Assembly: GCA_965263355.1 (NCBI GenBank)
Contig: CBDHHL010000056.1
Coordinates: 960,001 to 1,024,000 of the forward strand
Length of the DNA: 64,000 nt
Origin: Leptolyngbyaceae cyanobacterium
GTDB taxonomy: Bacteria; Cyanobacteriota; Cyanobacteriia; Phormidesmidales; Phormidesmidaceae
Direction of reading: 5' to 3'
Both the position numbers and the translations under genes were made by a program. Shown here one piece after another: positions 20,505 to 43,005 of the stretch. How positions within the stretch are numbered: the first letter of the stretch is position 1; every line of letters starts with the position of its first letter. The notes beneath the pieces were generated by a model. The model ran no database searches and was not told where the DNA came from. It was given only the letters and a program-made list of their open reading frames with translations.

Positions 20505-21362
20505 TCATTCTTGATAGCGGTTGTACAAAGTTTGAATTTGTGAATATATCTTTTCTCTTACACTCTCTGGACCAATCACTTCACAGTCTCCGCCATAGGG
20601 GAGTACTTCTCGTATAAACCAAAAGGTACTGGTAATTTGTCGGATCACCTGGCGTACCTGGGGTTTATCGGGTAACCATTCCACTGAGATATCTCTGCTT
20701 TTTTTACTTCGGTAGGCAAAGGCAAGACCTTTGTATAAGTGCATTTCCACCTTGAGGGTATCTAAATCATCGCGCCAGGGGCCTTTAATGGCGCTGATAG
20801 CGGCATCGGTAATGCGATCTAGTCGTAGGGTGCGGTTATGAATGAGTTCAGGGACATCTTGGGAGCCTTCGGTTTCTTCGCACCAGCAGTCGAGATACTG
20901 CCGTTCGTCTCTGGGGACGATACGGGCATGGCGGATGGTGAAGTGCCAGATGATGTCTCGGGCGTCTTGATAGGAGAGTTGAAACGGCTGCTGACGATTT
21001 ATGTAACGTTCGATATCGATGCGCCAGGGATGTACGTGACTGGTTACGAATTGTTCTAGTTCGTTACGCAGGGGTATGGTGAGTTCGCTACGGCTACACA
21101 ATAGCTGTGTAATCGTGATGGCATCTGCGATTTTGCCTGCATCGACCAGGGTCAGGCGGGCTTGGTTGAGGGCTTCGATGCGTTCCGAGGACCAGTCATG
21201 GTTAGGGGCAATTTTAAGGTCTTTGCGGGCGATGGCTTCGACGAGTTTGGAGATGTTAGGGCGCTCCCCCCAGGTCATGTTGTATTCGAGCGCGAGTGCT
21301 TCGAGCAGCGCTTTGTCGCGTTCTGAAATAGAAAGGGTAACAGATTGGCCTCGACGTCCCAT
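20505..21362 (-). CDS. CRISPR-associated WYL-domain regulator (Sll7009-like)
   Basis: RHH-like N-terminus, QYLDCWC..NRTLRLDRI WYL core and WCX tail; divergent from the cas genes. Confidence 0.88.
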   Translation of the reverse strand: MGRRGQSVTLSISERDKALLEALALEYNMTWGERPNISKLVEAIARKDLKIAPNHDWSSERIEALNQARLTLVDAGKIADAITITQLLCSRSELTIPLRNELEQFVTSHVHPWRIDIERYINRQQPFQLSYQDARDIIWHFTIRHARIVPRDERQYLDCWCEETEGSQDVPELIHNRTLRLDRITDAAISAIKGPWRDDLDTLKVEMHLYKGLAFAYRSKKSRDISVEWLPDKPQVRQVIRQITSTFWFIREVLPYGGDCEVIGPESVREKIYSQIQTLYNRYQE

Positions 21363-21508
21363 GGGGTTACTACTTTGGTCTAGAACTTATACTTTTACCT
21401 GGCTTGTACGTACACTTTAATCTAAAATGAGTTTATTTAGCCTTGACTGTCCAAATTATCGATGACAGTATAGGTATATTCAAGTCGTCAAGTACAGTTT
21501 ATAGACTT

Positions 21509-22528
21509 ATGACGATACAACCTTCAGGTGACTACCAAAATTTACTCGGTGACGTCAAACAACGCATCCGCTCAGCGCAATATGATGCTTTGAAATCGGT
21601 CAATCGTGAGCTGATTGCCCTGTACTGGGAAATTGGGCAGATGATCGTCACTCGTCAGCAAACTACGGGTTGGGGGCGTTCGGTGGTGGAGCAGTTATCA
21701 AAAGACCTCCGGGCAGAGTTCCCAGGTATTAGTGGGTTCTCGGCTCGTAATATTTGGAGAATGAGGGATTTCTATCTTAATTATCGTACTAATGAAAAAC
21801 TGCCACCATTGGTGGCAGAAATTGGCTGGACCCACAATTGTGTCATTTTAGAAAAATGTAAGGATGATTTGGAGCGTGAGTTTTACCTGCGCATGACGCG
21901 TAAATTTGGTTGGACGAAGAATGTTTTAATTCATCAAATTGATAATAAGACCTATGGGAAAACTCTCACGAGTCAGACTAACTTTGATGGAGCTTTACCT
22001 GAAGAGATTCGAAATCAAGCCAAGCTTGCTGTAAAAGACGAGTATACGTTTGATTTTCTAGAGCTAGCCGATGAACATAGTGAACGGCAGCTAGAGCAGG
22101 CCATTTTGAGTAAAGTTGAACCCTTTCTAAGAGAAATGGGTGGCATGTTTACGTTTGTGGGTAGCCAGTATCGCCTGGAAATCAGTGGTGAGGAGTATTT
22201 TATTGATCTGTTGCTCTATCATCGGACTTTGAAGTGTTTGATTGCGGTAGAGCTGAAGATTGGGAAGTTTTTACCAGAGTATGTGGGCAAGATGCAGTTT
22301 TATTTGGCTGCCTTGGATGCTCGGGTGCGGTTGCCGGATGAGAATTCGGCGATTGGCATCATTCTTTGTAAATCGAAAGATCGGACCATCGTAGAGTATG
22401 CGCTGCGGGAGTCGAATAAGCCAATTGGGGTGGCCACATATCAGATTGTGTCAGCGGTGCCTCCAGAGTTGGAGGGGCAGCTACCGGCACCGGAACAGAT
22501 AGCGAAATTATTGGGAGATGTTAATTAA
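21509..22528 (+). CDS. DUF1016 / YhcG PD-(D/E)XK nuclease-domain protein
   Basis: LYWEIG, GFSARN..MR.FY, FIDLLLYHR..VELK and GKMQFY. Confidence 0.9.
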   Translation: MTIQPSGDYQNLLGDVKQRIRSAQYDALKSVNRELIALYWEIGQMIVTRQQTTGWGRSVVEQLSKDLRAEFPGISGFSARNIWRMRDFYLNYRTNEKLPPLVAEIGWTHNCVILEKCKDDLEREFYLRMTRKFGWTKNVLIHQIDNKTYGKTLTSQTNFDGALPEEIRNQAKLAVKDEYTFDFLELADEHSERQLEQAILSKVEPFLREMGGMFTFVGSQYRLEISGEEYFIDLLLYHRTLKCLIAVELKIGKFLPEYVGKMQFYLAALDARVRLPDENSAIGIILCKSKDRTIVEYALRESNKPIGVATYQIVSAVPPELEGQLPAPEQIAKLLGDVN

Positions 22529-22551: not shown

Positions 22552-24729
22552 ATGTATAGCATTACCTTAAAGCCAGTCTATTCATGTCCTGCTCAACAAC
22601 TGCCTGATGGAGTTATTTTGCCTGATGGCTGGGAGTCTTTGGCTTGGCATCAGGTCGAGACCTTTAAAGCACTCAACGATCCTGATGTCGATGTTGTTTT
22701 TAACACAGCAATGACCGGAGATGGTAAGAGTTTAGCTGCCTATCTCAAGGTATTTCAGGAGTATTACTGTGCTCTAGGTCTTTATCCCACCAATGAGTTA
22801 GCCAGAGATCAAGAAAATCAACTGCTGGAGAATATCCAAAAATTTAAGCCATCCCATAGGCCAAGAGTAAATCGTCTGAGTAGTGCTGAGTTAGAGATTT
22901 ATGCAGAAACTGAAGGGTTGACTAAAGCTGGGTCCATAGGAACACTAACAAACCAATCCGAAGTCATCGTCACTAACCCTGATATCCTGCACTACATTTA
23001 CCGGGGTGCCTATGTAATGAAACAGGACACGCCAGATAAGCTATGGAATCGGATTGACCGAAATTTTGACTTATTTATCTTTGATGAGTTTCATATTTTT
23101 GCGGCACCCCAAGTGGCCAGTGTTATCAACACGCTGTTGTTAATTCGATTGACCAATCGGCCTAAAAAGTTTTTATTCTTGTCTGCGACGCCTGATGAAC
23201 AACTTGTGGGACGCCTGAGAACTGCTGGGTTTCGTTGTCAGGTGATTGATCCACAGAAAGAGAACAAATATAATTTTCCAGATAGTGCTGAACAAGCTAT
23301 TGAGTTAAATGGTAAACACTGGCGGCAAATTGCCAGGGCTATAGATCTAAACTTTGTAGCAGTTGAATCGACGTCTAAAGCATCGGAAACCTGGATCAAA
23401 GAGAATTCAGAACAAATTCTGCAGCATTTTCAACAAGGTCCTGGCACTAAGGGGGCAATCATTCTGAACTCTATTGCTTCAGTTAAGCGGCTGGTACCTT
23501 TTCTACAAAACTTGTTTCAGCCCCATGGATTGACTGTTGGTGAAAATACAGGACTTTCAGGTAAAGAAAAACGAGCGCAATCTTTAGAGGCTGATTTGGT
23601 TATTGGTACCAGCACCATTGATGTGGGTGTGGACTTTAAGATTAACTTTTTAATTTTTGAATCAGCCGATGCTGGTAATTTTATTCAGCGATTGGGGCGA
23701 TTGGGCAGACATGATGGCTATGTGAAAGCAGGCAAGGAAATTGCATTCAATGGGTTTACCGCCTATGCCCTGATTCCTCAGTTCTTTGCAGAACGGCTAT
23801 TTACAAAAGGAGACCAGCCACCACTTAAAACGGGTAAGAGTTATGATCGTCAGTCTTTGCACAACATCATCAGAGACAATTATCGAAATATCAACGACTT
23901 TCAGGGTTATTATTCTCGCTGGGGTGCTTATCAGTCCCTGGCATTGGGTAAGAAGTTGGCCGACAAGAAAATTCAAGAACAGTATGCAGGTAGTTTAGCG
24001 GTCTTTCAAGCAACCTGTGAAAAGGTTTTTAATCGTCGCTTTAAGGAATTGTCCGGTCGGGCTAGCAGTTGGCGCAAAGACTGGCAGGCATTATCCGGGA
24101 AGAAAGATGGAAGTAACCCTATTTTTGAAGATGCCTGTAGTTTTCGAGGGGCTAGTCCGCTGCAGTGTGGACTATATGATCTGACTGAAGAAAACCCAGT
24201 GGATCGGTATAAGACCTATTCACTACCGGGCATCCTCAGCAATTTAGAGGTAGAGGTATGGACAAAAGCTGCATTTTTGAGATCCCTCAAAGAAACGGTT
24301 AAAGCGACTGGACAGTCGATACCCAAAGGCAGATTTGAACATTGCCTGATTTTTCTAAAGCTCCGTGCCTACCGTGAAGAACGATTGGATTGGAAGTTTA
24401 CGTATCCAGGTGAACTGACTAAGCAGACTAATCAGGTACAGGTACTGACAGGACTTGAAATCTGGCAACCTGATAACCCATGGGCCAGCAGTGTTAATAA
24501 AAAGCTACGGAATCAAGGAATAGTCTGCTATGGCCTTCATAAACCTGTTCAGGAAGTACGGCATAAGCTGCGACTACCAATGCATTTTCAGCTTTATTCC
24601 ATCAGCGATCACTATAGTTATCACGATCCTAAAGCACCGTATTCAATAGCCTTTGGGCAAAGCGCTTTGATGCTGGATACACTGACTGGCTGGCTCAAGC
24701 ACAAGAGCAGTGAACCACTTATTTTTTAG
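22552..24729 (+). CDS. cas3: Type I-D helicase Cas3'
   Basis: TGDGKS, DEFH, LSAT and QRLGRLGRH; no HD domain; I-D context. Confidence 0.93.
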   Translation: MYSITLKPVYSCPAQQLPDGVILPDGWESLAWHQVETFKALNDPDVDVVFNTAMTGDGKSLAAYLKVFQEYYCALGLYPTNELARDQENQLLENIQKFKPSHRPRVNRLSSAELEIYAETEGLTKAGSIGTLTNQSEVIVTNPDILHYIYRGAYVMKQDTPDKLWNRIDRNFDLFIFDEFHIFAAPQVASVINTLLLIRLTNRPKKFLFLSATPDEQLVGRLRTAGFRCQVIDPQKENKYNFPDSAEQAIELNGKHWRQIARAIDLNFVAVESTSKASETWIKENSEQILQHFQQGPGTKGAIILNSIASVKRLVPFLQNLFQPHGLTVGENTGLSGKEKRAQSLEADLVIGTSTIDVGVDFKINFLIFESADAGNFIQRLGRLGRHDGYVKAGKEIAFNGFTAYALIPQFFAERLFTKGDQPPLKTGKSYDRQSLHNIIRDNYRNINDFQGYYSRWGAYQSLALGKKLADKKIQEQYAGSLAVFQATCEKVFNRRFKELSGRASSWRKDWQALSGKKDGSNPIFEDACSFRGASPLQCGLYDLTEENPVDRYKTYSLPGILSNLEVEVWTKAAFLRSLKETVKATGQSIPKGRFEHCLIFLKLRAYREERLDWKFTYPGELTKQTNQVQVLTGLEIWQPDNPWASSVNKKLRNQGIVCYGLHKPVQEVRHKLRLPMHFQLYSISDHYSYHDPKAPYSIAFGQSALMLDTLTGWLKHKSSEPLIF

Positions 24730-24841
24730 TTTCAGTCCCGGTTTTCGGGATTAGGGATGTCGATAGAAATGAAACAGCTTTCGCCATTAAGTACAGACAG
24801 ACGTGTTTCAGTCCCGATTGTCGGGATTTATATTAACTTCG
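24729..24841 (-). CRISPR. One-spacer mini-array (CreA/CreR-like) with two degenerate repeats
   Basis: Minus-strand repeats ...AAATCCCGACAATCGGGACTGAAAC (24805-24841) and ...TAATCCCGAAAACCGGGACTGAAAC (24729-24765) keep the hairpin and 8-nt handle of the main repeat; ~39-nt spacer at 24766-24804. Confidence 0.9.
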
Positions 24842-24912
24842 ACAAATTGACCTATCGAACTCTATCAACCAATTTCAATCATATATGGTTTAAGCAATCA
24901 AAGATTGAAAAG

Positions 24913-24933
24913 GTAACGTCAGTCTTAACTTAA
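24913..24933 (+). promoter_or_regulatory. PAM (GTA) plus partial protospacer for the mini-array guide
   Basis: GTA-ACGTCAGTCTTAACTTAA versus guide ACGTCTGTCTGTACTTAA: 15/18 matches, mismatches at 6, 11 and 12. Confidence 0.75.
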
Positions 24934-25032
24934 CATATTTAGAAAAAGGTATTGCTATCGGCTATCGATTAAGTTAGCTTCAGATTGTCAGAGGAAGTAA
25001 TTCATTCGTATTAGTTAACTAGGAGTATATCA

Positions 25033-25233
25033 ATGCGACGAATCAAGACGAAAGGAAAAATTGATCTCTTATTAAAGGTACTTTCCGATCACGAATGGCA
25101 TTGGGGAGAAGAGCTTGCTACTAAAGTAGGATGGCGATTTGGTGCAACAGTTAAAACAGCAAGAGACAAAGGATATCAAATTGAAAGTGAGCGTGTTGGT
25201 CTTCAGTGGAGGTATCGACTATTGAGAGATTAG
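25033..25233 (+). CDS. Small winged-HTH protein (BirA N-terminal/HTH_11-like)
   Basis: LL.VLSDHEWHWGEELA...GYQIES..YRL; SD AGGAG upstream. Confidence 0.75.
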   Translation: MRRIKTKGKIDLLLKVLSDHEWHWGEELATKVGWRFGATVKTARDKGYQIESERVGLQWRYRLLRD

Positions 25234-25294
25234 CTAAAACTTAGATTAAAGTAGCTCTTCGCGAATAACTGTTCCATAAGTTGAAGAGCTCCAC

Positions 25295-25431
25295 AAGGAA
25301 GCCTGATTAATAGCTTTCGGCGTTAAGAACAGGCAGACGTAGTCTAAACCCCCTCGCTTTTTGATAGCAGGCTGGTTAAGTCTTAAGAGCTGATGAACTG
25401 ACTCGAATTTGCAAAGTTCTCAGGCTTCCTT
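25295..25431. ncRNA. Candidate structured RNA closed by a 12-bp stem and containing the guide complement
   Basis: AAGGAAGCCTGA (25295-25306) / TCAGGCTTCCTT (25420-25431) perfect inverted repeat with internal hairpins. Confidence 0.45.
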
Positions 25432-25468
25432 TCTTATAGTTTCAGTCGATGAGTACCTCAAGTGAAAC

Positions 25469-25911
25469 ATGTTTATTCAAAGCCTTGAGAATCTGTATTC
25501 CAAAGTGCCAAAGATTTTAGAGCAAGTTCCCTATCTCAAGCTATTAATACTTTTTGGGTCTAGGGCAAAAGGTGACAATACATCCAACAGTGATTGGGAT
25601 TTTGCTTTTCTATGTGATGAAAATGAGCGTTCTCATTATGAACAAGGTGGTTGGGATAACTTCAGGATCAGTAGCTTGTTAGGACAGGTACTTGAACTTC
25701 CTAGTCATGCTATAGACATCGTGGATCTTAACGAGTGTCCTGAACTTTTAGCCCATCAAATAGCTCAGGACGGAAGGTCATCTACGAAAAAGAACCCAGC
25801 GAGTTTGAACGGTTTCGACAAAGCCATCTAAAGAGTCCAGAGCAAATACAGCAAATAGGACAAGACTTAAGTTCAAGCATTCAAGAGCGTCTACGACAGT
25901 GGAGTGCATGA
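25469..25911 (+). pseudogene. mntA: MntA-type adenylyltransferase antitoxin, frameshifted near 25775
   Basis: LFGSRAKG...SDWDFA motif; the expected continuation KVIYEKEPSEFERFRQ...QWSA* is in another frame and its TGA overlaps the hepT ATG. Confidence 0.75.
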
Positions 25912-26348
25912 CAATGAATTTTAACTCTGTTCGTTTCAGACTTAACTTGATTCTGGATTATCTAGAAGAGCTGAGACCGCTTGGAACAGTGACGTTTGAT
26001 GAATTAACTGATGATCGATACAAATATCGTTCTGCTGAACGATTGTTGGAAATCATTATCCAGGCTGCCATTGATATCAACAACCATCTGATATCAGGAC
26101 TGAGCAAACGACGACAGGCATCAAATACCGACAATTTTCTGGAAATGGCTAAATTAAATATCCTGACTCCAGAAATAGCGCAAGATTTATCGGCCTCCAG
26201 CAATTTTCGAAATCGTTTGGCCCATGAATATTACAGCATTGATCCATCCATTGTTTTTCAGTCCATTACTAAAGCTTTAGAACAATATCCACAGTACGTG
26301 CAACAAGTGCTTGAATTTGTAGACAACTTTGAGATGAATGATGAGTAA
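25908..26348 (+). CDS. hepT: HepT-type HEPN RNase toxin (DUF86)
   Basis: AERLLEIIIQAAIDI and intact R-x4-H motif FRNRLAHEY. Confidence 0.88.
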   Translation: MTMNFNSVRFRLNLILDYLEELRPLGTVTFDELTDDRYKYRSAERLLEIIIQAAIDINNHLISGLSKRRQASNTDNFLEMAKLNILTPEIAQDLSASSNFRNRLAHEYYSIDPSIVFQSITKALEQYPQYVQQVLEFVDNFEMNDE

Positions 26349-29300
26349 TAATCTCAACGACGATAATCTTGATTGGTTAGATGACGATATTGGGGATGAA
26401 CAGTCGTCTAACCGAACGATTGAACCCACTCAGCGTGAGCTTCTGACCTTAAAGCTTTTACGCTCCGCGATTCACACACAGAATCCTGATGATGCCGTAA
26501 TGCAGGATTTTGCTGAGTATGTATTACCTAACTTGTTGAAAATTACCATTGGCGTTACGGCTAAGGGAGGTAAGTTTTTTGACAAGTTAGATCAAGAAAA
26601 GGGGAAAGAAAACGTTCGGCGTGATAATGCAGCGGATCAGTCTCTGAATACTCACTTGCTTAATGGTTTATTTCCAGCAAATCTAATCGAACAACGGCTT
26701 GAACAACTGGATACAACGATTCAACGATTAGTGCGAGAGCAAGAGCGTCGTTTGGTCATGGCGGCTTTTATTCTGCATGATTTTGAGAAATTTCCTGATG
26801 TTGATGGTGAGATTAGAAGCTTGCCTGGTGAAGAACGTCTAAAACAACATCGTCAGGTTATCGACAAAAAAATACAACAGCTTGGGCTAGATCACTTTAT
26901 TAATCCCCAAAATCCAACGGCATACCGAGAGTATCTGGATGATCTGTTATGTATGGCTTACAACGCCCAAAGACGTTGGGATACGAATTGGAATTTTTCA
27001 GAATATGGGTTGCAGCCAGTCTTAAAAGACAAAATTTTGCGAAATTTGACTGAGTTAACCTGTTTAGCTGATTCCTTGGCATCCATCATCAAACATCCCC
27101 AAGATGCCACCAGTTATAAGTTCAAAGAACTACTCCATAGCTTGAGTGACGGACAAATCAGCCTTACCTATCATAGCATTTCAGAAAACAGGGGGGTGTT
27201 GACCAACGTAGTCAATAATGCCGTTATGGATGCCCATATTGCGCTCAATACCCCAGATAAAAAGCATTATGAACCGCTACTCTATCTACCAACTGGGGTT
27301 ATTTATCTGGCCTATGGGAAACCACCTCCGGTGGCACTTAATGATTTGCCTGAGCGGGTGATCGCCAAAATCAAACAACTCTGTTTTGAACAGCTAAGAC
27401 GTCGCCAAACTGGTTTTAGTCGGGATGGTAAAGGCATGAAATATGCCGACTACTACACGCTTTTCTGTGACACTCGGCAGTTAATGTACATCGCCTTAGA
27501 TGCCACCCTCAGAATCTTATCTAACAATAAAAAGTCTGTTGGTCCTAGCCGCAGTGCAAAACTCAAAACGTTTCAAGAAAAAGGTGCTCTTTCAGCGGAT
27601 TATGATTTTCAACTGGGGGATGATATTCGGATTGATCAGCTAGCTGAGTTCGGCGATGTGATTTGCCGTAAAGTGTGGGGTGAGCGATGCGATCTCATCC
27701 AAACCCTATACAAAGAAAGAACCAAAAAACGGAAGAAAAACAAAGACTTATCAGAACTTCCGGAGTTAAAGCTATTGCCTGAACAACTGGTTATCAAGCT
27801 GGCTGAGTTTTTAGGTCTATCAGAGTATCTACCGCAACTCCGAGAAATCCAGACTATTAACGCTACTCTAAAAGAGAAAAAAGTCAAAGGCAGTACCGGT
27901 GGCATTCCCTACGAATGGTATTTTATCTCCACTAAACTAATTCAGGGTTCAGGTATCGAAAATATTCGAGAGATTGCCGAGAAAATTATTGACCATGCTG
28001 CAAACTTAATTGAGCCTGTTATCGCCCAATATGAAGTTGCTGATGGCTGGGATGACTTAAGATCTTGGGTAAATCAAGTGGTGATGCTGCCACAGGCCAC
28101 CATAACTAAAACACCCAAAGATCAGACCGATATCTTTCTAAAGGAATTGGCCAGCTATCAGGTGGCCAAAAAAGTTGGACGTGGCAAACTAGCGATTTGC
28201 TCAGTCTCCCATTCTGCCTACTCTGTAAAAGAGCAAATGGAATCAGAGGTATTATTTACTCCCCAGGTGTATACCAATAAACAGCTACTGGGTGGTTCTA
28301 ACGCGAAACGCAATATTTCCAGCATTGCAGGGTTAGAAATGATGCTACGTCAGATTCTAATGAACCAAACTCAAGCAGTGGGCAAACGGTTTGAAGATGG
28401 CAAATATCGTTATCTCTACTTTTACCCTACCTACTACTTCACCCCGGAAACCAGTCGTTTCTTACAAAAAGCTTATACAGGCATTGCCCAAACTCGATTT
28501 AGTACCAATCTACGCAATCACTTTATCTCTAAGGATTTGGTCGTTGATTTTAGTCGTGAGCACTATCAGGCGGTTGATTCATTCTTGATCGATGATGATT
28601 TAGAGCGCAAGACAACCTTACCTGAAGATGATCCAGACTATAAACGCGATCGCACCTTTAAACTCTCTTACCCAGACGATCAGCCATTAACCTTTTTCTT
28701 TATGGCATTGCCACCGGGACGAGACCCCACCGATACCGAATCTTGGGTAATGCCAGCCTGGTTAGCCTTTGCTAGTCCAATGATTCTGGATGTCAAAACC
28801 GTGGTCTCAGAATCTCCTGTCCCCCCATTTAATGATGGTGCGGAGTTTGAAGAAAGTGTCTTTTTGGATAGTGCCCCCCAAGCCTTTAGAGCCCTACTCA
28901 AACAGGATAGGTTCCGGTTAGATTACATCCTTGAAGGTTGGCAAACCCCAGACGGCACCCAGCAAGCTTCTCCCCTTAATGCCTTAACCAGTGCCTATGC
29001 AATTCACCTGGATGTGAATGCCAAACAAGGTAAGGGAGGATATGACGCTAACTGGGGCAAGTTGACAGAGCTAGCCAAAGATTTAGAAACCAGTCCGCTC
29101 TATGTATTCAATTACTTAAATCGTTGGCTTCGTAATCAGAAAAAAGAATCTATACGTATAGAAAAGATCAAACTCTATGCCTACCACTTTTATCCCTGTT
29201 TTGACCCGCATACAAAATTAATCGTACTTGACTTGGAGGAAATGCTTGTGTGTGACGAGAAATCTGCGCTGAGACATCCGCAAAGACTGACCGAATTGTA

Positions 29301-29757
29301 CAGACGGTTTTATCGTGCCGATAAACGATATAACCCCAAAAGCAATGCCGTTTTGAAACCGATCAAGGAAGCCGCTGATGTTATTTTGAATGCGGATACT
29401 GATGGGTTTAGGGGAGAAGACTTAGTCTTTTTAGTTGCTGCTAAGAATACAAAGTTAATGGATCGAATTCATTCGTCAGGTGCGGAAGGCTATCCTGTCT
29501 TTAAACGAAATGAGCGCGACCAAGAACGAGAATCTATCCTAGAATTTGCTCGATATTTTGTCCATGAGGTATTTGAAAAATCCTTTGCTAGTGATCGTGG
29601 TCGGTTAGCAGGCAGACAACTCAATCTTCTGCGTGATGCGTGTGAATTCATCTATCGTCTTGAACAAGACAAAGAAAATAAAAAAGATAAAGATAAAGCA
29701 GACAGTAAGCAAATCAAGAACGACGTTAACTCATCGAACGATAATGGCGAGGATTAA
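26338..29757 (+). CDS. cas10d: Type I-D large subunit Cas10d (Csc3)
   Basis: N-terminal HD domain (DQSLNTHLLNG...LHDFEK), PQVYTNK; 1139 aa. Confidence 0.93.
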   Translation: MMSNNLNDDNLDWLDDDIGDEQSSNRTIEPTQRELLTLKLLRSAIHTQNPDDAVMQDFAEYVLPNLLKITIGVTAKGGKFFDKLDQEKGKENVRRDNAADQSLNTHLLNGLFPANLIEQRLEQLDTTIQRLVREQERRLVMAAFILHDFEKFPDVDGEIRSLPGEERLKQHRQVIDKKIQQLGLDHFINPQNPTAYREYLDDLLCMAYNAQRRWDTNWNFSEYGLQPVLKDKILRNLTELTCLADSLASIIKHPQDATSYKFKELLHSLSDGQISLTYHSISENRGVLTNVVNNAVMDAHIALNTPDKKHYEPLLYLPTGVIYLAYGKPPPVALNDLPERVIAKIKQLCFEQLRRRQTGFSRDGKGMKYADYYTLFCDTRQLMYIALDATLRILSNNKKSVGPSRSAKLKTFQEKGALSADYDFQLGDDIRIDQLAEFGDVICRKVWGERCDLIQTLYKERTKKRKKNKDLSELPELKLLPEQLVIKLAEFLGLSEYLPQLREIQTINATLKEKKVKGSTGGIPYEWYFISTKLIQGSGIENIREIAEKIIDHAANLIEPVIAQYEVADGWDDLRSWVNQVVMLPQATITKTPKDQTDIFLKELASYQVAKKVGRGKLAICSVSHSAYSVKEQMESEVLFTPQVYTNKQLLGGSNAKRNISSIAGLEMMLRQILMNQTQAVGKRFEDGKYRYLYFYPTYYFTPETSRFLQKAYTGIAQTRFSTNLRNHFISKDLVVDFSREHYQAVDSFLIDDDLERKTTLPEDDPDYKRDRTFKLSYPDDQPLTFFFMALPPGRDPTDTESWVMPAWLAFASPMILDVKTVVSESPVPPFNDGAEFEESVFLDSAPQAFRALLKQDRFRLDYILEGWQTPDGTQQASPLNALTSAYAIHLDVNAKQGKGGYDANWGKLTELAKDLETSPLYVFNYLNRWLRNQKKESIRIEKIKLYAYHFYPCFDPHTKLIVLDLEEMLVCDEKSALRHPQRLTELYRRFYRADKRYNPKSNAVLKPIKEAADVILNADTDGFRGEDLVFLVAAKNTKLMDRIHSSGAEGYPVFKRNERDQERESILEFARYFVHEVFEKSFASDRGRLAGRQLNLLRDACEFIYRLEQDKENKKDKDKADSKQIKNDVNSSNDNGED
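29248..29757 (+). CDS. cas11d: Cas11d small subunit from an internal start in cas10d
   Basis: SD GGAGG at 29235-29239 followed by in-frame ATG 29242 / GTG 29248, just before LTELYRRFYRA. Confidence 0.7.
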   Translation: MCDEKSALRHPQRLTELYRRFYRADKRYNPKSNAVLKPIKEAADVILNADTDGFRGEDLVFLVAAKNTKLMDRIHSSGAEGYPVFKRNERDQERESILEFARYFVHEVFEKSFASDRGRLAGRQLNLLRDACEFIYRLEQDKENKKDKDKADSKQIKNDVNSSNDNGED

Positions 29758-33050: not shown

Positions 33051-33240
33051 CCATAGACAGCTAAAGCTCGATGAGCTATTTCAACGCATTGATGCCCTTG
33101 AACCAGATTTCGATCAACCCTCTGACGAAGAAATTTGCCAGATAGTCCAGGAAGTTCGCCATAGGCGAGCCATCCATGAGAGTAATCCTTTCTTTAAACC
33201 CATTACGGATCAAGGGGTAAACCATGGCTCAGGTGCTTAA
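33034..33240 (+). CDS. Small hypothetical protein (antitoxin-like)
   Basis: ORF coupled to cas6; acidic helix PSDEEICQIVQEVR. Confidence 0.45.
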   Translation: MPLPHNHRQLKLDELFQRIDALEPDFDQPSDEEICQIVQEVRHRRAIHESNPFFKPITDQGVNHGSGA

Positions 33241-33280
33241 GCCTGAGCAGTCCTATACTTTTGGTGAAATCTTTGACCTT

Positions 33281-35477: not shown

Positions 35478-38400
35478 CTCGCCAACCAAAAATCCCGACA
35501 ACCGGGACTGAAACTTGAACCATCGAACTATGATGGTAGCACCTTTAGCCTACTCGCCAACCAAAAATCCCGACAACCGGGACTGAAACTAGCCTGAACG
35601 ATAATCGAACTCAGAAAATTGTATTTACTGACTCGCCAACCAAAAATCCCGACAACCGGGACTGAAACAGCTCGTTGACGGGAACCCCCAATTTAACCCC
35701 TCGCCAACCAAAAATCCCGACAACCGGGACTGAAACAAATAGGGCCATCAAAAATCCCGACAACCGGGGATGATTCAGCTCTGCAGTTCATACTCGCCAA
35801 CCAAAAATCCCGACAACCGGGACTGAAACATCGATGAGAAAACTATGTTTGCTTAGAAAACCTGGCTGTAGTCTGCTCGCCAACCAAAAATCCCGACAAC
35901 CGGGACTGAAACGTATCTGAGGCAACACGATACGCTTCAATTAGCTCTGCAAGCTCGCCAACCAAAAATCCCGACAACCGGGACTGAAACCAGGGGACAT
36001 GGTTGGAGCAGTTTAACTTATGTAGCTCGCCAACCAAAAATCCCGACAACCGGGACTGAAACGGAAACTGAGCGTGATCACTTGGCGCACTGAAGCTCGC
36101 CAACCAAAAATCCCGACAACCGGGACTGAAACCAGGATATGGACGGACCCTGAGGATTTAAGACGTCATGGCTCGCCAACCAAAAATCCCGACAACCGGG
36201 ACTGAAACTCTGTCAGCATTACCTATCTTGTTCAGCTGGTTGAACGGCCTCGCCAACCAAAAATCCCGACAACCGGGACTGAAACAGAACGGAGGCCGTA
36301 GGCTCGCCAACCAAAAATCCCGACAACCGGGACTGCTCTTACCACTTCCTCGCCAACCAAAAATCCCGACAACCGGGACTGAAACTCGTCAATGTCTTGG
36401 CCATGCGCGACCTGCCCATGCTCGCCAACCAAAAATCCCGACAACCGGGACTGAAACATGGATTTCAGCGTTAGGAGCAGGCTCGCCAACCAAAAATCCC
36501 GACAACCGGGACTGAAACATGTCTGGCCTTCCTAATTCCTGCTGCTCGCCAACCAAAAATCCCGACAACCGGGACTGAAAACCCGAATGATCAGATAATT
36601 GATCTCTCACAGTGTGACTCGCCAACCAAAAATCCCGACAACCGGGACTGAAACATGCTTTCTGCGTCACGGGTTCTATCTCCCTACTAGCTCGCCAACC
36701 AAAAATCCCGACAACCGGGACTGAAAACTTAAGCTGTAACTTTCCTGGGAGTCAGGAACCCCTCGCCAACCAAAAATCCCGACAACCGGGACTGAAACGC
36801 CACTGTCGCAGCTTTGCCGCACCGTTGGCTTGTTGGCTCGCCAACCAAAAATCCCGACAACCGGGACTGAAACTTTGCCATCACGCAATTCATGATCACC
36901 CAATCCCCTCGCCAACCAAAAATCCCGACAACCGGGACTGAAACGCCAGTTATCAACTCTCCTTCCTCAATGTCAGCATGGCCGCACTCGCCAACCAAAA
37001 ATCCCGACAACCGGGACTGAAACGCATTAGGAGTATCCTTTGAACGGGTTGAATTGCTCTGCTCGCCAACCAAAAATCCCGACAACCGGGACTGAAACAT
37101 TTCCTAACCTGTATGGTTCCGTTCCTGCCCCAACTCGCCAACCAAAAATCCCGACAACCGGGACTGAAACTACGTGGATTCTATGGCTCGCCCTATACCT
37201 GCTAAAAGCTCGCCAACCAAAAATCCCGACAACCGGGACTGAAACATTATTTCTGGGGCTGCCATAGGGACTAACTTCCTCCTCGCCAACCAAAAATCCC
37301 GACAACCGGGACTGAAACTGGTTCTATGAATCGGGCCTGAATTAAAGGCATATTCAAGATACTCGCCAACCAAAAATCCCGACAACCGGGACTGAAACAT
37401 CAGGTTAACTCACTAACCTAGGGTCCGCCACTGCTCGCCAACCAAAAATCCCGACAACCGGGACTGAAACATTACCTGATAATCCGTCATAATAACAGTG
37501 AAACAGCTCCATTCACTCCTCGCCAACCAAAAATCCCGACAACCGGGACTGAAACTATTGGTTCCTTATACGTTAATCGTTGACATGTCGGGGAAGCTCG
37601 CCAACCAAAAATCCCGACAACCGGGACTGAAACATGGTGCATTGCTCCTCAGCAATTGAAGCGTTGCAGACTCGCCAACCAAAAATCCCGACAACCGGGA
37701 CTGAAACCTGATGACTTGGAGATGCATCAGTAGGCAGCTAAATACTCGCCAACCAAAAATCCCGACAACCGGGACTGAAACAGAAACTGAGCTAACAAGC
37801 TACGCTGCAGGTAATCAAAGATGAGCTCGCCAACCAAAAATCCCGACAACCGGGACTGAAACAAACCTCCGCCCATAGAAGCCTTAACAGAATTCCAGAC
37901 CCAAGCTCGCCAACCAAAAATCCCGACAACCGGGACTGAAACGCTCACTGTTTCCGTTCCTGCCTATTCGTGCGAGATCCCAAGCTCGCCAACCAAAAAT
38001 CCCGACAACCGGGACTGAAAACTTTGCCTTGGGGTTGTCGGCGCTGCAACACTCGCCAACCAAAAATCCCGACAACCGGGACTGAAACCGTAGATCTTCC
38101 CCCATGTGCCCCTTGGCTCGCCAACCAAAAATCCCGACAACCGGGACTGAAACCTTCCAAGCAGCTGGCCAATGCAACGGAGCTACCTCGCCAACCAAAA
38201 ATCCCGACAACCGGGACTGAAACTAGCTGCTTCACTGGAAGAAACAGTAAGTTGAAACTCGCCAACCAAAAATCCCGACAACCGGGACTGAAACTGAATC
38301 TTTACCGCAAGAATGGTATCTGTTTTCTCGCCAACCAAAAATCCCGACAACCGGGACTGAAACTCAGGTTGCACTCACTAACCTAGGGTGTAAGCGCCAC

Positions 38401-41400
38401 AGCTCGCCAACCAAAAATCCCGACAACCGGGACTGAAACGGTTAATTCGATGATCTTTTGCTGCCTAGTAATGTTCTTGCTCGCCAACCAAAAATCCCGA
38501 CAACCGGGACTGAAACGATTCACTAGAGTTATGAGTGACCGACCGACTGGTTCCTCGCCAACCAAAAATCCCGACAACCGGGACTGAAACACTGCTTTAA
38601 GTTTTGCGACTCGTTTTAGTCGTGTCAGCTCGCCAACCAAAAATCCCGACAACCGGGACTGAAACGCTTGTTACTTCAACGACGACAACAAGGATCAACT
38701 CGCCAACCAAAAATCCCGACAACCGGGACTGAAACTACAAAGAACTTGGCATTGAGTTTCAGGAGGGTTTCTCGCCAACCAAAAATCCCGACAACCGGGA
38801 CTGAAACTCCTGAGCTGGGCTTTCATTCGAAGAAACCGGGACTCGCCAACCAAAAATCCCGACAACCGGGACTGAAACATTTCTGTCTACTGTCATGTCG
38901 CTAGTGATGTTGTTCTCGCCAACCAAAAATCCCGACAACCGGGACTGAAACATCGGAACAGATCCAAGGACAGAGATACGGCAGCGCTCGCCAACCAAAA
39001 ATCCCGACAACCGGGACTGAAACACCCTCAACAGACCCTCTGCCCAATTATAAAGCAATCACTCGCCAACCAAAAATCCCGACAACCGGGACTGAAACTG
39101 CCATTTGGAGCTTGGATGACAACTTCGACTAGTTCGAGACTCGCCAACCAAAAATCCCGACAACCGGGACTGAAACGTGTCCAGCTGCCATGATGCTTGG
39201 CACCCCGAGCCTCGCCAACCAAAAATCCCGACAACCGGGACTGAAACGACCGGTTGGTTGATGCGTTTGGGGGCGCTTGAACCAGTCCTCGCCAACCAAA
39301 AATCCCGACAACCGGGACTGAAACTGAAGTTGAACCGCCATAAAACGTCTGTAACTAACTCGCCAACCAAAAATCCCGACAACCGGGACTGAAACAAAGT
39401 CCAGCTATTTCCGGCTTGGAGGACGCTAGGCTCGCCAACCAAAAATCCCGACAACCGGGACTGAAACCCAAATCACCTTGCTCTTTTAGAAGACTGTCAG
39501 GATCTCGCCAACCAAAAATCCCGACAACCGGGACTGAAACTGCTCTTTTTTTATCTGGAGTCGCAGCACCCGCTTACTCGCCAACCAAAAATCCCGACAA
39601 CCGGGACTGAAACACACAGCCAAAAGGGACAGAGGGATTCGAACCCCCCGACTCGCCAACCAAAAATCCCGACAACCGGGACTGAAACTTAGGCCACTTG
39701 TTTTTTATCTGCATTGTTTGGCCGATCTCGCCAACCAAAAATCCCGACAACCGGGACTGAAACTAATGCTCCGCAACTGGCCAGCATATATAGGCAGTGC
39801 TCGCCAACCAAAAATCCCGACAACCGGGACTGAAACCTGTCCACATATTCAAAGATGCTCTAAAGATGCTCGTCTCGCCAACCAAAAATCCCGACAACCG
39901 GGACTGAAACGCATCGCAAGGTTGGGCACAGTGTTCTGTGCTGTCTCGCCAACCAAAAATCCCGACAACCGGGACTGAAACTTTAAGCGAGAATTAGTAT
40001 CTTCTACGAACTCCTGCTCGCCAACCAAAAATCCCGACAACCGGGACTGAAACTGATCAATACCGCTCACTTTATCCGCTTTGCTCTCATCTCGCCAACC
40101 AAAAATCCCGACAACCGGGACTGAAACTTCTAACGAAAGAGAGTTTTGCATCAGCTGGGTCTACTCGCCAACCAAAAATCCCGACAACCGGGACTGAAAC
40201 TCGATAGTTTAGCCTAGGTTTGTGTAAAAATCCACAACTCGCCAACCAAAAATCCCGACAACCGGGACTGAAACATAAATTTACCTGAATTATTCGCCAT
40301 AGGAGGCTTGGCTCGCCAACCAAAAATCCCGACAACCGGGACTGAAACGCACATAGACGCAAGGCTTCAAACTGCACCAAACGCCCACTCGCCAACCAAA
40401 AATCCCGACAACCGGGACTGAAACTATTAGAAAATCAATTATTCAACAATACTAGGATTCCTCGCCAACCAAAAATCCCGACAACCGGGACTGAAACCTT
40501 GTGGGAATGGGGCGAAGTTACACCCTCTAACTACTCGCCAACCAAAAATCCCGACAACCGGGACTGAAACCACAGTCTTAGAAGCAGATTAAGGAGAGAA
40601 AAAACTCGCCAACCAAAAATCCCGACAACCGGGACTGAAACTGGGGTAAGCCTGCCGAGAACCTTTGTCAATACCGACTCGCCAACCAAAAATCCCGACA
40701 ACCGGGACTGAAACCATAGCCTGGAATAACCTTGGGCTCCCATCGATGACTCGCCAACCAAAAATCCCGACAACCGGGACTGAAACGACCGTTGGCACGG
40801 TCAGGCGCGAGCGTGGGCAGCGCTCGCCAACCAAAAATCCCGACAACCGGGACTGAAACTCTAAAGCTGAAGGTTCACCACAAGGATAACAATTTCCCTC
40901 GCCAACCAAAAATCCCGACAACCGGGACTGAAACGCGTTCTTGACTCTGCGTCCTGAGGCCCACTTCACTCGCCAACCAAAAATCCCGACAACCGGGACT
41001 GAAACAATTGCTTTTCATGGCCTACATATTCCCCTCAATTGCTCGCCAACCAAAAATCCCGACAACCGGGACTGAAACGCTACTGGGACAGCTGCCGAGT
41101 ACAGGATCAAAGACCTCGCCAACCAAAAATCCCGACAACCGGGACTGAAACGGCGATTGAGCCAAGCCCATCAACAACGTTACTGGCCTCGCCAACCAAA
41201 AATCCCGACAACCGGGACTGAAACTTTTGGCCACGGGTTGAGAACAGATAGAGGTAGAACTCGCCAACCAAAAATCCCGACAACCGGGACTGAAACGAGA
41301 CGAACCAGACGCTAAAGAGCAAGCTGGCCAGCTCGCCAACCAAAAATCCCGACAACCGGGACTGAAACATTGTTAATAAGTATCGGTGAAATTCTGCTGT

Positions 41401-43005
41401 TGCCTCGCCAACCAAAAATCCCGACAACCGGGACTGAAACTTCTGTTTCGCCTGAGTATTTGAACCTATCAATAGCTCGCCAACCAAAAATCCCGACAAC
41501 CGGGACTGAAACCTAAGGGTTAAATTGCCGCGCCTGGTCCCCAGCTGCCGGGGCTCGCCAACCAAAAATCCCGACAACCGGGACTGAAACGAACCTATTG
41601 AGCTAACCGCTACCAACCCTCCCAAAACTCGCCAACCAAAAATCCCGACAACCGGGACTGAAACGATCGACCACAGGCCTCAAAAAAGCCGGACTCGCCA
41701 ACCAAAAATCCCGACAACCGGGACTGAAACCCAATGCATCGCAAGCATCCACCACCGTTAGCTCGCCAACCAAAAATCCCGACAACCGGGACTGAAACAG
41801 AGTGACACCGTACATGTTTAGACTAGCAGTACTCGCCAACCAAAAATCCCGACAACCGGGACTGAAACCTACTACAACAGTTAATGACCAGGAAACCTAA
41901 TGAGGCTCGCCAACCAAAAATCCCGACAACCGGGACTGAAACTGATAAAAGTCAATCTGGTGATTATGGTTGAGGCCTCGCCAACCAAAAATCCCGACAA
42001 CCGGGACTGAAACGCCCATGAAGACCTCAGCATTTGTAATTTTTGTTTGCTCGCCAACCAAAAATCCCGACAACCGGGACTGAAACATTATTAGCTTTGC
42101 TATCGGACTAGGGCCAAAACTCGCCAACCAAAAATCCCGACAACCGGGACTGAAACTTTATTGTAACGGCTGATATTCAGGAACTAAGCTCGCCAACCAA
42201 AAATCCCGACAACCGGGACTGAAACAGACGTATTAGCCGTTGCATTAAAACCTAAGACTCCTCGCCAACCAAAAATCCCGACAACCGGGACTGAAACGTA
42301 GGATTTCTACTAGATAGCAAAACTACAAATCCTCGCCAACCAAAAATCCCGACAACCGGGACTGAAACGTAGCTAACACGATCTAAAAAACTACTTTCTT
42401 CTCCCTCGCCAACCAAAAATCCCGACAACCGGGACTGAAACTCATGCCCTAGTGACATGTTCAGATTTACATACTCGCCAACCAAAAATCCCGACAACCG
42501 GGACTGAAACGTAGCAGTAAGGAAATCGTTGGCTGGATAGCGCTCGCCAACCAAAAATCCCGACAACCGGGACTGAAACCTTATACTCAGTCACAGCAAG
42601 AGTGCTCGCCAACCAAAAATCCCGACAACCGGGACTGAAACTGGTGAGAAACTTAGACCCTGTTTGGTCTACAACAAACTCGCCAACCAAAAATCCCGAC
42701 AACCGGGACTGAAACGTTTTGGACTCTCCAGAGTCGGAGTCAATCAAGGTGCTCGCCAACCAAAAATCCCGACAACCGGGACTGAAACAGCATGGGCCAA
42801 AGCGGAGGACTGAGGATTTGAACCTCGCCAACCAAAAATCCCGACAACCGGGACTGAAACCTTAGGGCCTATTGGCACACCACGAAAGGACATTGCTCGC
42901 CAACCAAAAATCCCGACAACCGGGACTGAAACTCAATAGTGGTTTGAATGCTTTGCTGACCCAGCTATCTCGCCAACTATAAAACCGATCAGCTAATTTA
43001 AATCA
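35478..43005 (+). CRISPR. Type I-D CRISPR array, 37-nt repeat CTCGCCAACCAAAAATCCCGACAACCGGGACTGAAAC
   Basis: About 103 repeats by manual count plus a degenerate terminal copy at 42969; the GAAAC 3' end, leader position and decayed distal repeat give + orientation. Confidence 0.98.

Follow-up and report, generated by a model that had tools for sequence, protein, structure and literature searches.

In this study, we describe a probable second target site for the crRNA-like guide of a type I-D CRISPR-Cas mini-array in a Leptolyngbyaceae cyanobacterium. The mini-array lies between cas3' and cas10d in the window, i.e. the whole stretch of 64,000 nucleotides that was analysed. Its spacer recurs downstream as a PAM-less copy (site 2), the + strand of which is complementary to the guide. 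We put the probability that selection maintains site 2 as a second target of this guide at roughly 60%. Slightly better than even, in our judgement, are the odds that type I-D Cascade hereby has a natural and conserved RNA target: a cis-encoded anti-guide, bound free of PAM and seed, in an operon that is silenced at the DNA level, the two sites together forming a two-level circuit.

The locus is a type I-D CRISPR-Cas locus. Cas10d/Csc3, Cas7d/Csc2, Cas5d/Csc1, the Cas3' helicase and Cas6 are all matched by family profiles (NCBIfam TIGR03174, 4.7e-280; TIGR03159, 7e-60; TIGR03158, 7e-113; Pfam Csc2, 1.4e-120, and Pfam Cas6). The helicase gene cas3' (22552..24729, + strand) is the TIGR03158 match and shows the Pfam domains DEAD and Cas3-like_C_2; its stop codon shares the first base of the mini-array. 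The mini-array (24729-24841) consists of two degenerate repeats around one spacer, in which CCCGnnnnnCGGG and GTTTCAGT are kept. Repeat 1 (24729..24765, - strand) is the source of the 3' hairpin of the guide RNA. Repeat 2 (24805..24841, - strand), which starts at 24805 with GTTTCAGTCCC, is the source of the 8-nt 5' handle ACUGAAAC and of the Cas6 hairpin CCCGnnnnnCGGG. The repeats are 92% identical over 24 nt, and Rfam CRISPR-DR52 gives a weak - strand match on repeat 1, under the gathering score. Between them lies the spacer (24766..24804, - strand), the core of which is conserved in relatives. Guide positions are counted from 24804 (position 1), so that positions 1-32 run from 24804 down to 24773. 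The orientation of the repeats is fixed by the main I-D CRISPR array (35478..42932, + strand, about 102 repeats), which reads ...GGGACTGAAAC on the + strand, with the leader adjoining cas2; the last repeat, at the opposite end, is degenerate. As the mini-array repeats are inverted with respect to the main-array repeat, the guide is read from the - strand and is complementary to the + strand of site 2.

Concerning the genes downstream, the + strand is the sense strand for a small ORF, mntA, hepT and cas10d. The small ORF (25033..25233, + strand, 66 aa) has no Pfam or NCBIfam family match. In one class of loci, to which the window belongs, it is conserved in its place between the two sites described below (homologues in L012, L017, L021, L025 and L028, a truncated one in L003). 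It is followed by an mntA-like nucleotidyltransferase gene, the cargo antitoxin (25469..25831, + strand; Pfam Polbeta, 1.7e-15), a hepT-like RNase gene, the cargo toxin (25899..26348, + strand; Pfam HepT-like, 2.9e-28), and cas10d, the first effector gene of the operon (26338..29757, + strand; TIGR03174). A consensus scan of 24650-25520 returned no sigma-70-like promoter and no intrinsic terminator, and + strand transcription over site 2 is assumed here from gene orientation alone.

Site 1 (24913..24935, + strand) has the form of a CreR-type DNA target, composed of the PAM GTA and the protospacer ACGTCAGTCTTAACTTAACA (15/20 match). GTA|ACGTCAGTCTTAACTTAACA matches guide positions 1-5, 7-10 and 13-18; under the rule of the comparative analysis this amounts to 14/15 non-sixth positions and a seed of 7/7. 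For this comparison, relatives were collected through Cas3' searches, and the set comprises 45 non-redundant cyanobacterial I-D mini-array loci; a metagenome scan yielded 17 loci, two of them new and usable. A GTN-flanked partial site 1 is found in 39/45 loci, with the PAMs GTC (20), GTT (17) and GTA (2). As the search rule demanded GT, these counts show that seed-matched sites with this PAM exist; an unbiased scan recovered identical sites. Across the 39 loci, mismatches are nearly absent at positions 1-5 and 7-9 and at chance level at 6, 12 and 18, and pairing is lost beyond about 18. The mini-array of the window with its site 1 is a member of the set already described by Shmakov et al. (2023).

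Site 2 (25309..25340, + strand) is the complement of guide positions 32 to 1 on the + strand, with 27/32 matches and no PAM. Thus, 24773-24804 and 25309-25340 form a direct repeat (27/32 identical, 84%) at a spacing of 536, and no further spacer match with at most three mismatches occurs within the window. In 1000 mononucleotide shuffles of the spacer, the best match over the downstream 1465 nt averaged 17.0 and never exceeded 21, so that none came up to 27. The match stops at 24804/24805, which is the spacer/repeat border. At the other end homology ceases with position 32; in the rest of the 39 nt between the repeats (24766-24772), 0/7 nt match. A preliminary description of this DNA had reported the 27/32 match and its end at the boundary, and both are confirmed. 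Its further statements, that site 2 is oriented opposite to site 1 and that the guide is complementary to the + strand, agree with the repeat orientation given above. The PAM-equivalent triplet is ACT (reverse complement of agt, 25341-25343) rather than GTN, again as described. The five mismatches fall on guide positions 8, 13, 19, 21 and 30, of which 8, 19 and 30 would form G:U pairs if the partner is a + strand RNA; these are the wobbles that had been pointed out before. Positions 1-7 are fully paired in the window. Since only one of the five mismatches (position 30) hits a sixth position here, the periodicity argument set out below rests on the relatives.

Site 2 was called in relatives when a direct-orientation copy of the spacer exceeded the 99th percentile of 200 shuffles and reached at least 20/32. 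By this rule it is present in 24/45 mini-array loci, 20 of which carry both sites. Inverted 32-nt matches under the identical rule were found in three loci only, all of them long site-1 sites. None of 31 site-2 copies has a GTN PAM; the triplets are ACT, ATT, AAT, TTA, ATG and AGT. Four loci with site 2 fail the site-1 rule (L008, L013, L067 and L088). On looser inspection PAM-flanked partial sites are still present in L008 and L013; a search of both strands of L088 and L067 found no site 1. Relative to the downstream genes, site 2 is invariably found on the sense strand. In the window the small ORF precedes it and mntA-hepT-cas10d follows; in other lineages site 2 occupies the 5' end of the leader, beginning 8-25 nt past a -10-like box, e.g. 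TTGCAA-N17-TATAAT in L018. The full module also stands directly ahead of cas10d on plasmid NZ_CP016482.1 of a culturable strain, Picosynechococcus sp. PCC 7117 (L101), the single match in a DNA search of a plasmid collection; it comprises the mini-array, a site 1 with GTC, the small ORF and, about 70 nt before cas10d, site 2. Throughout the 151 cyanobacterial genomes searched, the site-2 element is single-copy and stands exclusively beside I-D cas3'. A covariance model (R1) run on these genomes, with 26 candidates scored per genome, gave five matches, all of them training members.

The flank to the right of site 2 resembles the repeat (AGTCTCAACCCCC versus ATTTCAATCCC). Judging from this likeness, a duplicated spacer-repeat unit was probably the origin of site 2, and some of the similarity is then purely historical. 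This raises the question whether site 2 is a functionless remnant of the duplicated unit in the course of decay. Besides the likely duplication origin, its absence from 21/45 mini-array loci speaks for such a relic, as does a truncated site-2 copy in L015, a locus without a mini-array. Indeed, the preliminary description had taken relatives with site 1 and no site 2 as a sign of a neutral relic, and such relatives make up 19 of the 39 site-1 loci. Given the covariation in the remaining loci, it follows that site 2 can be dispensed with, but not that it is neutral. In the window's class, site 2 is as conserved between genera (20-27/32) as the spacer itself. Moreover, site 2 follows the lineage-specific changes of the spacer. 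Between lineages, identity of spacer to spacer falls to 5-18/32, so that spacers become mutually unalignable, whereas the spacer and site 2 of the same locus keep 21-27/32. The sum of same-locus identities (282) was reached by 0/100,000 permutations of locus pairing (kinship ignored), and within the window's class 2/720 permutations reached the observed sum. With 20/45 relatives carrying both sites and with this covariation, the earlier prediction of relatives with both sites and compensatory changes gains support. Furthermore, variation is free at every sixth position only, whereas a neutral copy would decay uniformly. Taken with these observations, a neutral relic has a next to negligible probability, and we continue with site 2 as a probably selected target.

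The pattern of matches carries most of the mechanistic information. Covariation between spacer and site 2 extends over guide positions 4-32 but spares 6, 12, 18, 24 and 30. At these five positions they are identical in 5, 9, 5, 6 and 2 of 21 loci, where 4.1, 6.8, 5.8, 5.4 and 3.7 would be expected for unlinked sequences. Non-sixth positions match in up to 21/21 loci, with up to all four bases in use: position 5 is matched in 18 loci (7.8 expected), position 25 in 20 (9.1 expected) and position 26 in 20 (8.5 expected), and four different matched bases occur at positions 5, 11, 15, 16 and 25. Of the 149 mismatches within positions 4-32, 78 are located at these sixth positions (17% expected). The mean number of mismatches per position is 15.6 in phase 0 and 0.8-5.2 in the other phases (21 non-redundant loci, kinship ignored). 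At positions 1-3 matching is no better than chance (8, 6 and 7 of 21 loci). The register of the periodicity had been set beforehand by the repeat border. The covariation statistics ignore phylogeny; this inflates the binomial p-value in particular and has less influence on how many matched base types are counted. It is established structural knowledge that every sixth base stays unpaired in Cascade. The Cas7 thumb intersects the duplex (PMC9123187). We read this 5+1 periodicity, whose register agrees with that of the 5' handle, as the footprint of pairing on the Cas7 backbone. The feature of 5-nt paired segments with a free sixth base is present at site 2; site 1 shows it too, at positions 6, 12 and 18.

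This register bears on whether Cascade is needed at all. The + strand RNA could pair with the free mini-array transcript, in the manner of a type I toxin-antitoxin or an sRNA/anti-sRNA pair, and the duplex be cut, for instance, by RNase III. Such naked antisense pairing would be served by about 29 nt of complementarity and would not require a PAM, and three of the five mismatches in the window are would-be G:U pairs. A free duplex, on the other hand, gives no reason for positions 6, 12, 18, 24 and 30, counted from the Cas6 cleavage site, to be free. The wobble bias over 12 loci is slight too, with 25 G:U-compatible versus 16 incompatible transitions, next to 61 transversions. As evidence for an RNA partner the bias would be weak, which is how it had been judged before. 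Pairing without Cascade is therefore quite improbable.

Two co-varying homologous copies could also both track a common third partner. Site 2 might be a second, unprocessed - strand guide gene, or both copies might be operators of one protein, such as the product of the small ORF, which is conserved between the copies in the window's class, or a WYL regulator. As to a guide gene, neither the Cas6 hairpin nor the 8-nt handle is present at site 2, and on the same grounds site 2 was rejected as a second Cas6-processed guide. For a protein operator, a 6-nt periodicity in the register of the crRNA handle would not be expected, and site 2 persists in lineages that have no small ORF between the sites. 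Concerning a third partner of either kind, site 1 pairs from position 1 to about 17, whereas the covariation of spacer and site 2 spans positions 4-32 and is absent at 1-3. We consider a common third partner highly improbable.

In the window, site 2 is enclosed by a predicted structured element. Its closing helix P1 is formed by a 12-nt perfect inverted repeat, with the 5' arm AAGGAAGCCTGA at 25295..25306 and the 3' arm TCAGGCTTCCTT at 25420..25431 (both + strand), the latter followed by a T/C-rich run. A helix search of each sequence, with shuffles, found P1 of at least 10 bp in 13/16 related loci, with differing sequences. It is unconvincing in L074 (7 bp), L082 (8 bp; 82/300 shuffles as good) and L021 (10 bp; 52/300). 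Inside P1, the repeat-like flank AGTCTAAACCCCCT (25341..25354, + strand), with the conserved motif ..TCTCAACCCCC.., is paired by RNAalifold with GGCTGGTTAAG; the 3' strand of this helix P3, GGCTGGTTAAGTCT, lies at 25370..25383 (+ strand). RNAalifold on the MAFFT alignment of 16 sequences did not recover the long-range helix, because its arms are misaligned. Part of site 2 is predicted to form a local hairpin, which would compete with guide binding. The Rfam 15 covariance models gave nothing in 25290-25440 at E up to 1, and weak CRISPR-DR52 matches on the mini-array repeats were the only ones. A tracrRNA-like anti-repeat is absent, as site 2 complements the spacer and the flank has the same sense as the repeat. 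An attC-like or MITE-like mobile element was considered as well and rejected, the element being single-copy and always beside cas3'.

The strand on which this structure would form helps to distinguish RNA from DNA. Cascade might engage the + (non-template) strand of the DNA once transcription or replication has exposed it, and hereby act as a transcription-coupled roadblock. A single-stranded DNA target predicts the same covariation, periodicity and PAM-independence. According to the accessible text of a 2023 review of type I-D systems, I-D Cascade has a high affinity for ssDNA and the S. islandicus complex cuts ssDNA at 6-nt intervals (PMC10212523). However, a transcription bubble opens far fewer than 29 nt, and cutting of chromosomal ssDNA would be hazardous. 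In addition, when the closing helix is built under pairing rules that allow G:U, the + strand version is longer than the - strand version in 8/16 loci, shorter in two and equal in six; this helix set fits a + strand RNA better than the - strand, a preference that is irrelevant for DNA. All in all, we regard a DNA strand as an unlikely partner. Lacking PAM and seed, site 2 could not be opened as dsDNA, which argues for engagement as a single strand, and the sense transcript is the most likely partner.

These observations suggest the following scheme. The guide would be transcribed from the - strand, cut by Cas6 at the two degenerate repeats and loaded into type I-D Cascade, to which the divergent + strand unit would offer two targets. 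The first, site 1, would serve as a DNA operator of the CreR/CreA type, with its GTN PAM and with pairing from position 1 to about 17, too short for cleavage. Site 2 would in most loci be left unpaired at positions 1-3 and be bound over 4-32 in 5-nt blocks. The transcript that is repressed at the DNA level would thus carry a high-affinity site for the same guide-Cascade complex. Each transcript could titrate one repressor complex, and derepression would then become switch-like. Nearly as likely as a decoy is a second layer at site 2, i.e. post-transcriptional repression or processing. In the window's class, the structured element of about 135 nt could last as a stable decoy; the RNA with its anti-guide may act in this way or as a Cascade-sensing, riboswitch-like element before the toxin-antitoxin cargo and cas10d. 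The preliminary description had proposed a PAM-less target on the RNA side, acting as sponge or post-transcriptionally. The PAM-less target has gained from the recurrence in 24/45 loci, the covariation, the 6-nt periodicity and the absence of GTN; the RNA partner and the effect of binding are what we infer.

The mini-CRISPRs of CreR, CreA and crlRNA are understood as DNA-level repressors. The covariation would be the evolutionary footprint, in many cyanobacteria, of guide-loaded Cascade on a sense-strand site without PAM and seed, and site 2 would supply the missing natural substrate for the single-strand binding of type I-D. If it is RNA that is bound, a transcriptional repressor is coupled in this circuit to a site in the message of its own product. 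Thresholds, memory or a tighter silencing of toxin-antitoxin cargo and cas genes can follow from such a motif, which would also bear on how a cell senses the loss of Cascade, e.g. by anti-CRISPRs. It also suggests that Cascade could be programmable for RNA binding.

Mini-array and site 1 are already known, and site 2 appears to be new as far as the literature search shows. Full-text literature searches and the main text of Shmakov et al. gave no account of a further site in antisense orientation. The preliminary description likewise knew of no CreA/CreR system with such a dual layout. As far as the text of Shmakov et al. (bioRxiv 10.1101/2023.03.03.530964) was accessible, the I-D mini-arrays reported there have, like ours, two repeats and one spacer after cas3' and a PAM-flanked partial target upstream of cargo (toxin-antitoxin genes, regulators) before cas10d, in a cas3-cas10d region that is a hotspot of cargo shuffling. 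They are given one promoter-region target per mini-array, and the second site is the feature added here. The terms 'antisense' and 'two target' are absent from that main text; the protospacers of Supplementary file 6 might list site-2 matches without comment. The available text of Liu et al. (bioRxiv 10.1101/2023.03.10.532045) describes for CreR/CreA a degenerate mini-CRISPR, a crRNA-like product and a PAM-flanked partial promoter site, all as here, with non-cleaving repression that serves cas autoregulation or toxin control. This regulation is described at the DNA level only, and the words sponge, decoy and antisense are absent from that text; the present locus differs by a longer, PAM-less site on the sense strand, which co-evolves with the guide. 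For comparison with CreTA, the unit downstream of site 1 holds the 66-aa ORF without family match and the protein toxin-antitoxin pair mntA/hepT. In CreTA, CreT is a small RNA toxin that arrests growth once Cascade is lost.

The capacity needed at site 2 is on record for type I-D. In the part of Schwartz et al. (2022, PMC9123187) available, I-D Cascade has a type III-like Cas7 backbone and binds ssRNA in vitro, in a sequence-specific way, at about 11 nM with either flanking sequence tested, and the earlier claim of PAM-independent ssRNA binding holds accordingly. The target used there was synthetic and fully matching, and that part names no natural RNA target. The 2023 review poses the physiological role of single-strand and RNA targeting as an open question in its accessible text (PMC10212523). 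The hallmark of a decoy or sponge, an extended, conserved and co-varying complementarity to the guide, is present at site 2. In RNA sponges and anti-sRNAs, a complementary site in a transcript titrates a complex of guide RNA and protein, sometimes within the regulated operon. The partners of sponges are sRNAs of the Hfq/ProQ type, whereas here the titrated species would be Cascade-crRNA, with the 5+1 geometry of the Cas7 filament. Racr, the RNA anti-CRISPRs of phages, are reportedly repeat-like non-coding RNAs that interfere with Cas complexes. Cracr/crlRNA are crRNA-like regulators that interfere with or hijack Cas complexes (bioRxiv 10.1101/2024.10.29.618823, in the text available). Racr and Cracr/crlRNA mimic the repeat or the guide, whereas site 2 is the complement of the guide, encoded by the host and in cis.

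On its + strand the window carries a complete type I-D CRISPR-Cas locus, in which a gap of 740 nt between cas3' (22552-24729, +) and mntA houses a mini-array and two sites related to its spacer. After the gap follow mntA/hepT, cas10d, an extra PD-(D/E)XK-like ORF, csc2, csc1, cas6, cas4, cas1, cas2 and the main array. The extra ORF (202 aa, 29761-30369, +), which lies between cas10d and csc2 and outside the standard I-D gene set, has no Pfam match and a weak Cas4 match under the cut-off (TIGR00372, E 0.001); its N-terminus (..QSYTFSKIFDL..) is similar to that of the locus's own Cas4 (33224-33862; ..QSYTFGEIFDL..). Between a WYL/WCX regulator gene (20505-21362, -) and cas3', a DUF1016/YhcG PD-(D/E)XK nuclease gene is inserted (21443-22528, +), a family of which fragments or copies are present in the cargo downstream of the mini-arrays in the related loci L019, L020 and L021. 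The main array has approximately 102 repeats, reading CTCGCCAACCAAAAATCCCGACAACCGGGACTGAAAC on the + strand, its leader adjoining cas2 and a degenerate repeat marking the distal end. Near the leader end an irregular unit (35738-35790, +) has a truncated repeat fragment beginning caaaaatcccgacaaccgggg within a 93-nt interval, and three repeats have a variant last base.

The mini-array (24729-24841) lies directly 3' of the cas3' stop and consists of two repeats and one spacer. Since its repeats are inverted compared to the main array and retain the Cas6 hairpin and the 8-nt handle, the predicted product is a - strand crRNA-like RNA with the handle ACUGAAAC, referred to here as the guide, whose position 1 is base 24804. 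Site 1 (24913-24935, +), flanked by the mini-array and a 66-aa ORF, reads GTA followed by ACGTCAGTCTTAACTTAACA and pairs with guide positions 1-5, 7-10 and 13-18. Consensus scans of 24650-25520 returned no promoters and no terminators. At 25437-25465 (+), just past the closing helix described below and 4 nt upstream of mntA, TAGTTTCAGTC recurs; 25434-25447 equals 24724-24737, where the cas3' stop meets repeat 1, at 13/14 positions. This recurrence, whose presence is inconsistent among relatives, might represent the stump of a third, solitary repeat at the border of the cargo insertion, or be due to chance.

Site 2 (25309-25340) is a direct copy of the spacer (24773-24804), identical at 27/32 positions, and the preliminary description proved right in every detail: the similarity ends exactly at the spacer/repeat border and, at the other end, at guide position 32, the PAM equivalent is ACT, and of the mismatches at guide positions 8, 13, 19, 21 and 30 three would be G:U pairs. 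None of 1000 spacer shuffles reached 27/32 in the 1465 nt downstream (maximum 21). Because its flank is repeat-like, site 2 probably originated by duplication of a spacer-repeat unit, a point that weighs against the functional reading proposed below.

Type I-D loci of relatives were gathered through Cas3' from species-representative genomes (43 loci), metagenomes (17 loci), 40 regions downstream of cas3' taken from the 51 that matched out of 401 cyanobacterial genomes, and a Picosynechococcus sp. PCC 7117 plasmid. A mini-array follows cas3' in 52 loci, 45 once near-identical ones are removed. Under fixed rules, site 1 (GT-flanked and seed-matched) is found in 39/45 and site 2 (a spacer copy in direct orientation, scoring 20/32 or better and exceeding the 99th percentile of 200 shuffles) in 24/45, with both in 20/45; the layout of the window is therefore a recurrent architecture and no local accident. 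Inverted 32-nt matches passing the site-2 rule occur in only three of the 45 loci, all of them unusually long site-1 sites. Counting against the functional reading of site 2 proposed below, it is missing from 21/45 loci and four site-2 loci fail the site-1 rule.

Several relatives show variants of the layout. PCC 7117 is a cultured strain whose plasmid (L101; NZ_CP016482.1, 2630-3330) has the complete module and no cargo: a site 1 with PAM GTC and mismatches at 7, 12 and then from 19 onward, a small ORF, and a site 2 at 23/32 (3130-3161) approximately 160 nt upstream of the annotated cas10d start, with mini-array, both sites and small ORF all unannotated. The Nostocales-like loci L017, L021, L045, L082 and L085 have site 1 on the other strand (PAM GTT/GTC on the - strand; up to 18/20 non-sixth positions matched), L017 having an extra + strand site besides, and L025, L026 and L074 have two tandem + strand sites each. 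In L088 and L067 (with the near-duplicates L089-L091), site 2 lies about 150-165 nt past the mini-array and no PAM-flanked site 1 is detectable on either strand; a short hairpin and a T-run after site 2 (e.g. GTTCTctagacAGAACggttttt in L088) suggest an attenuator or a short RNA that terminates there.

The layout is found across lineages in which the spacers are no longer recognisably related: spacer identity between classes is 5-18/32, and within a locus spacer and site 2 agree at 21-27/32. Random re-pairing of loci reached the same-locus identity in 0/100,000 trials, and permutation within the window's own class of related loci in 2/720, kinship being ignored in both. The comparative search proposed in the preliminary description, for loci with both sites and compensatory changes, thus came out in its favour. 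Position by position, in 21 non-redundant loci with the register preset by the repeat border, spacer and site 2 agree at guide positions 6, 12, 18, 24 and 30 in 5, 9, 5, 6 and 2 loci, which fits the expectation for unlinked columns (4.1, 6.8, 5.8, 5.4 and 3.7). At the remaining positions of 4-32 agreement reaches up to 21/21 loci with the base differing between lineages, as at position 5 (18/21, 7.8 expected), 25 (20, 9.1 expected) and 26 (20, 8.5 expected); at positions 5, 11, 15, 16 and 25 the matched states include all four bases. Positions 1-3 agree at chance level (8, 6 and 7 of 21). Between positions 4 and 32 there are 149 mismatches, 78 of them on the five sixth positions, 17% being expected; shared ancestry inflates the binomial p-value of 2e-22 but has less effect on how many base types are seen matched. 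Picking site 2 by maximal identity in a preset register cannot generate a six-nucleotide period. In type I and III complexes every sixth target base is left unpaired on the Cas7 filament, and the pattern of five paired and one free position therefore says, as read from sequence covariation, that site 2 is kept complementary to the guide as seated in Cascade. The window's own mismatches lack this periodicity, only position 30 being a sixth position, and count against this reading.

Site 1 serves as a control. In the 39 loci its PAM is GTC, GTT or GTA (GT was demanded by the search rule), positions 1-5 and 7-9 hardly ever mismatch, those at 6, 12 and 18 match no more often than by chance, and pairing is gone past about 18; by this pattern it is a predicted canonical DNA operator. 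Compared with each other, the two footprints are complementary: a PAM and positions 1 to about 17 at site 1; no PAM, no pairing at 1-3 and pairing at 4-32 at site 2.

Among 31 site-2 copies with inspected flanks none has a GTN PAM, and most lack the first three seed pairs, so a dsDNA R-loop should not be nucleated there and the chromosome would be safe from Cas3'/Cas10d despite approximately 29 nt of complementarity. A covariation footprint without PAM or seed thus points to I-D Cascade engaging a natural single-stranded target in cis, probably RNA. For Synechocystis I-D Cascade the affinity for a matching ssRNA is about 11 nM whichever of two flanking sequences is present, its PAM-recognition domain remaining disengaged (PMC9123187). 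Site 2 is always in the sense orientation for the downstream genes. In several lineages it starts 8-25 nt past a -10-like box (TTGCAA-N17-TATAAT in L018; a conserved TATAAC in the L013/L016/L023/L084 group), which would place it at the 5' terminus of the putative regulated transcript. Loci of the window's class have it downstream of a conserved ORF of about 65 aa without recognised family, embedded in an element of about 135 nt with three predicted helices: a closing helix AAGGAAGCCTGA/TCAGGCTTCCTT (25295-25306/25420-25431; at least 10 bp in 13/16 loci, with differing sequences), a hairpin within site 2, and a third helix in which the repeat-like flank pairs with a conserved GGCTGGTTAAG. Single-stranded DNA is a possible partner as well; in 8 loci the closing helix is longer when paired by + strand rules than by - strand rules, against 2 in which it is shorter and 6 with equal length, which favours + strand RNA. 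Right 3' of the small ORF lies an 8-bp hairpin with a 22-nt loop (25253-25260/25283-25290, +; AGCTCTTC and GAAGAGCT), and relatives have a hairpin there too (L025, TTTGGTGG/CCACCAAA; L028, GGAGAGG/CCTCTCC); having no U-run, the window's hairpin may serve in processing or stabilisation.

The guide-Cascade complex predicted to silence the promoter at site 1 would also bind with high affinity on that promoter's transcript. We prefer, at a probability of roughly one in three, the reading that site 2 is a decoy by which each transcript removes one repressor complex. Such titration would make derepression switch-like, and the structured element seen in the window's class could last as a stable decoy. 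A second layer of leader repression or processing fits the data equally and would go well with keeping the hepT/mntA cargo tightly shut off; we rate it only slightly less probable than the decoy, and the covariation data would be compatible with either sign of regulation.

Shmakov et al. 2023 describe I-D mini-arrays, their position after cas3', a PAM-flanked target upstream of cargo and the enrichment of toxin-antitoxin cargo, and Liu et al. describe CreR/CreA-type regulation. A second, PAM-less site on the sense strand was not found described by full-text literature searches or in the texts of these two papers, the crlRNA preprint or reviews; an unremarked entry in the protospacer list of Shmakov et al. 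(Supplementary file 6) is possible. With its mini-array and site 1 the window is an ordinary member of the described systems, and what appears to be new compared to them is the five-plus-one covariation footprint without PAM or seed.
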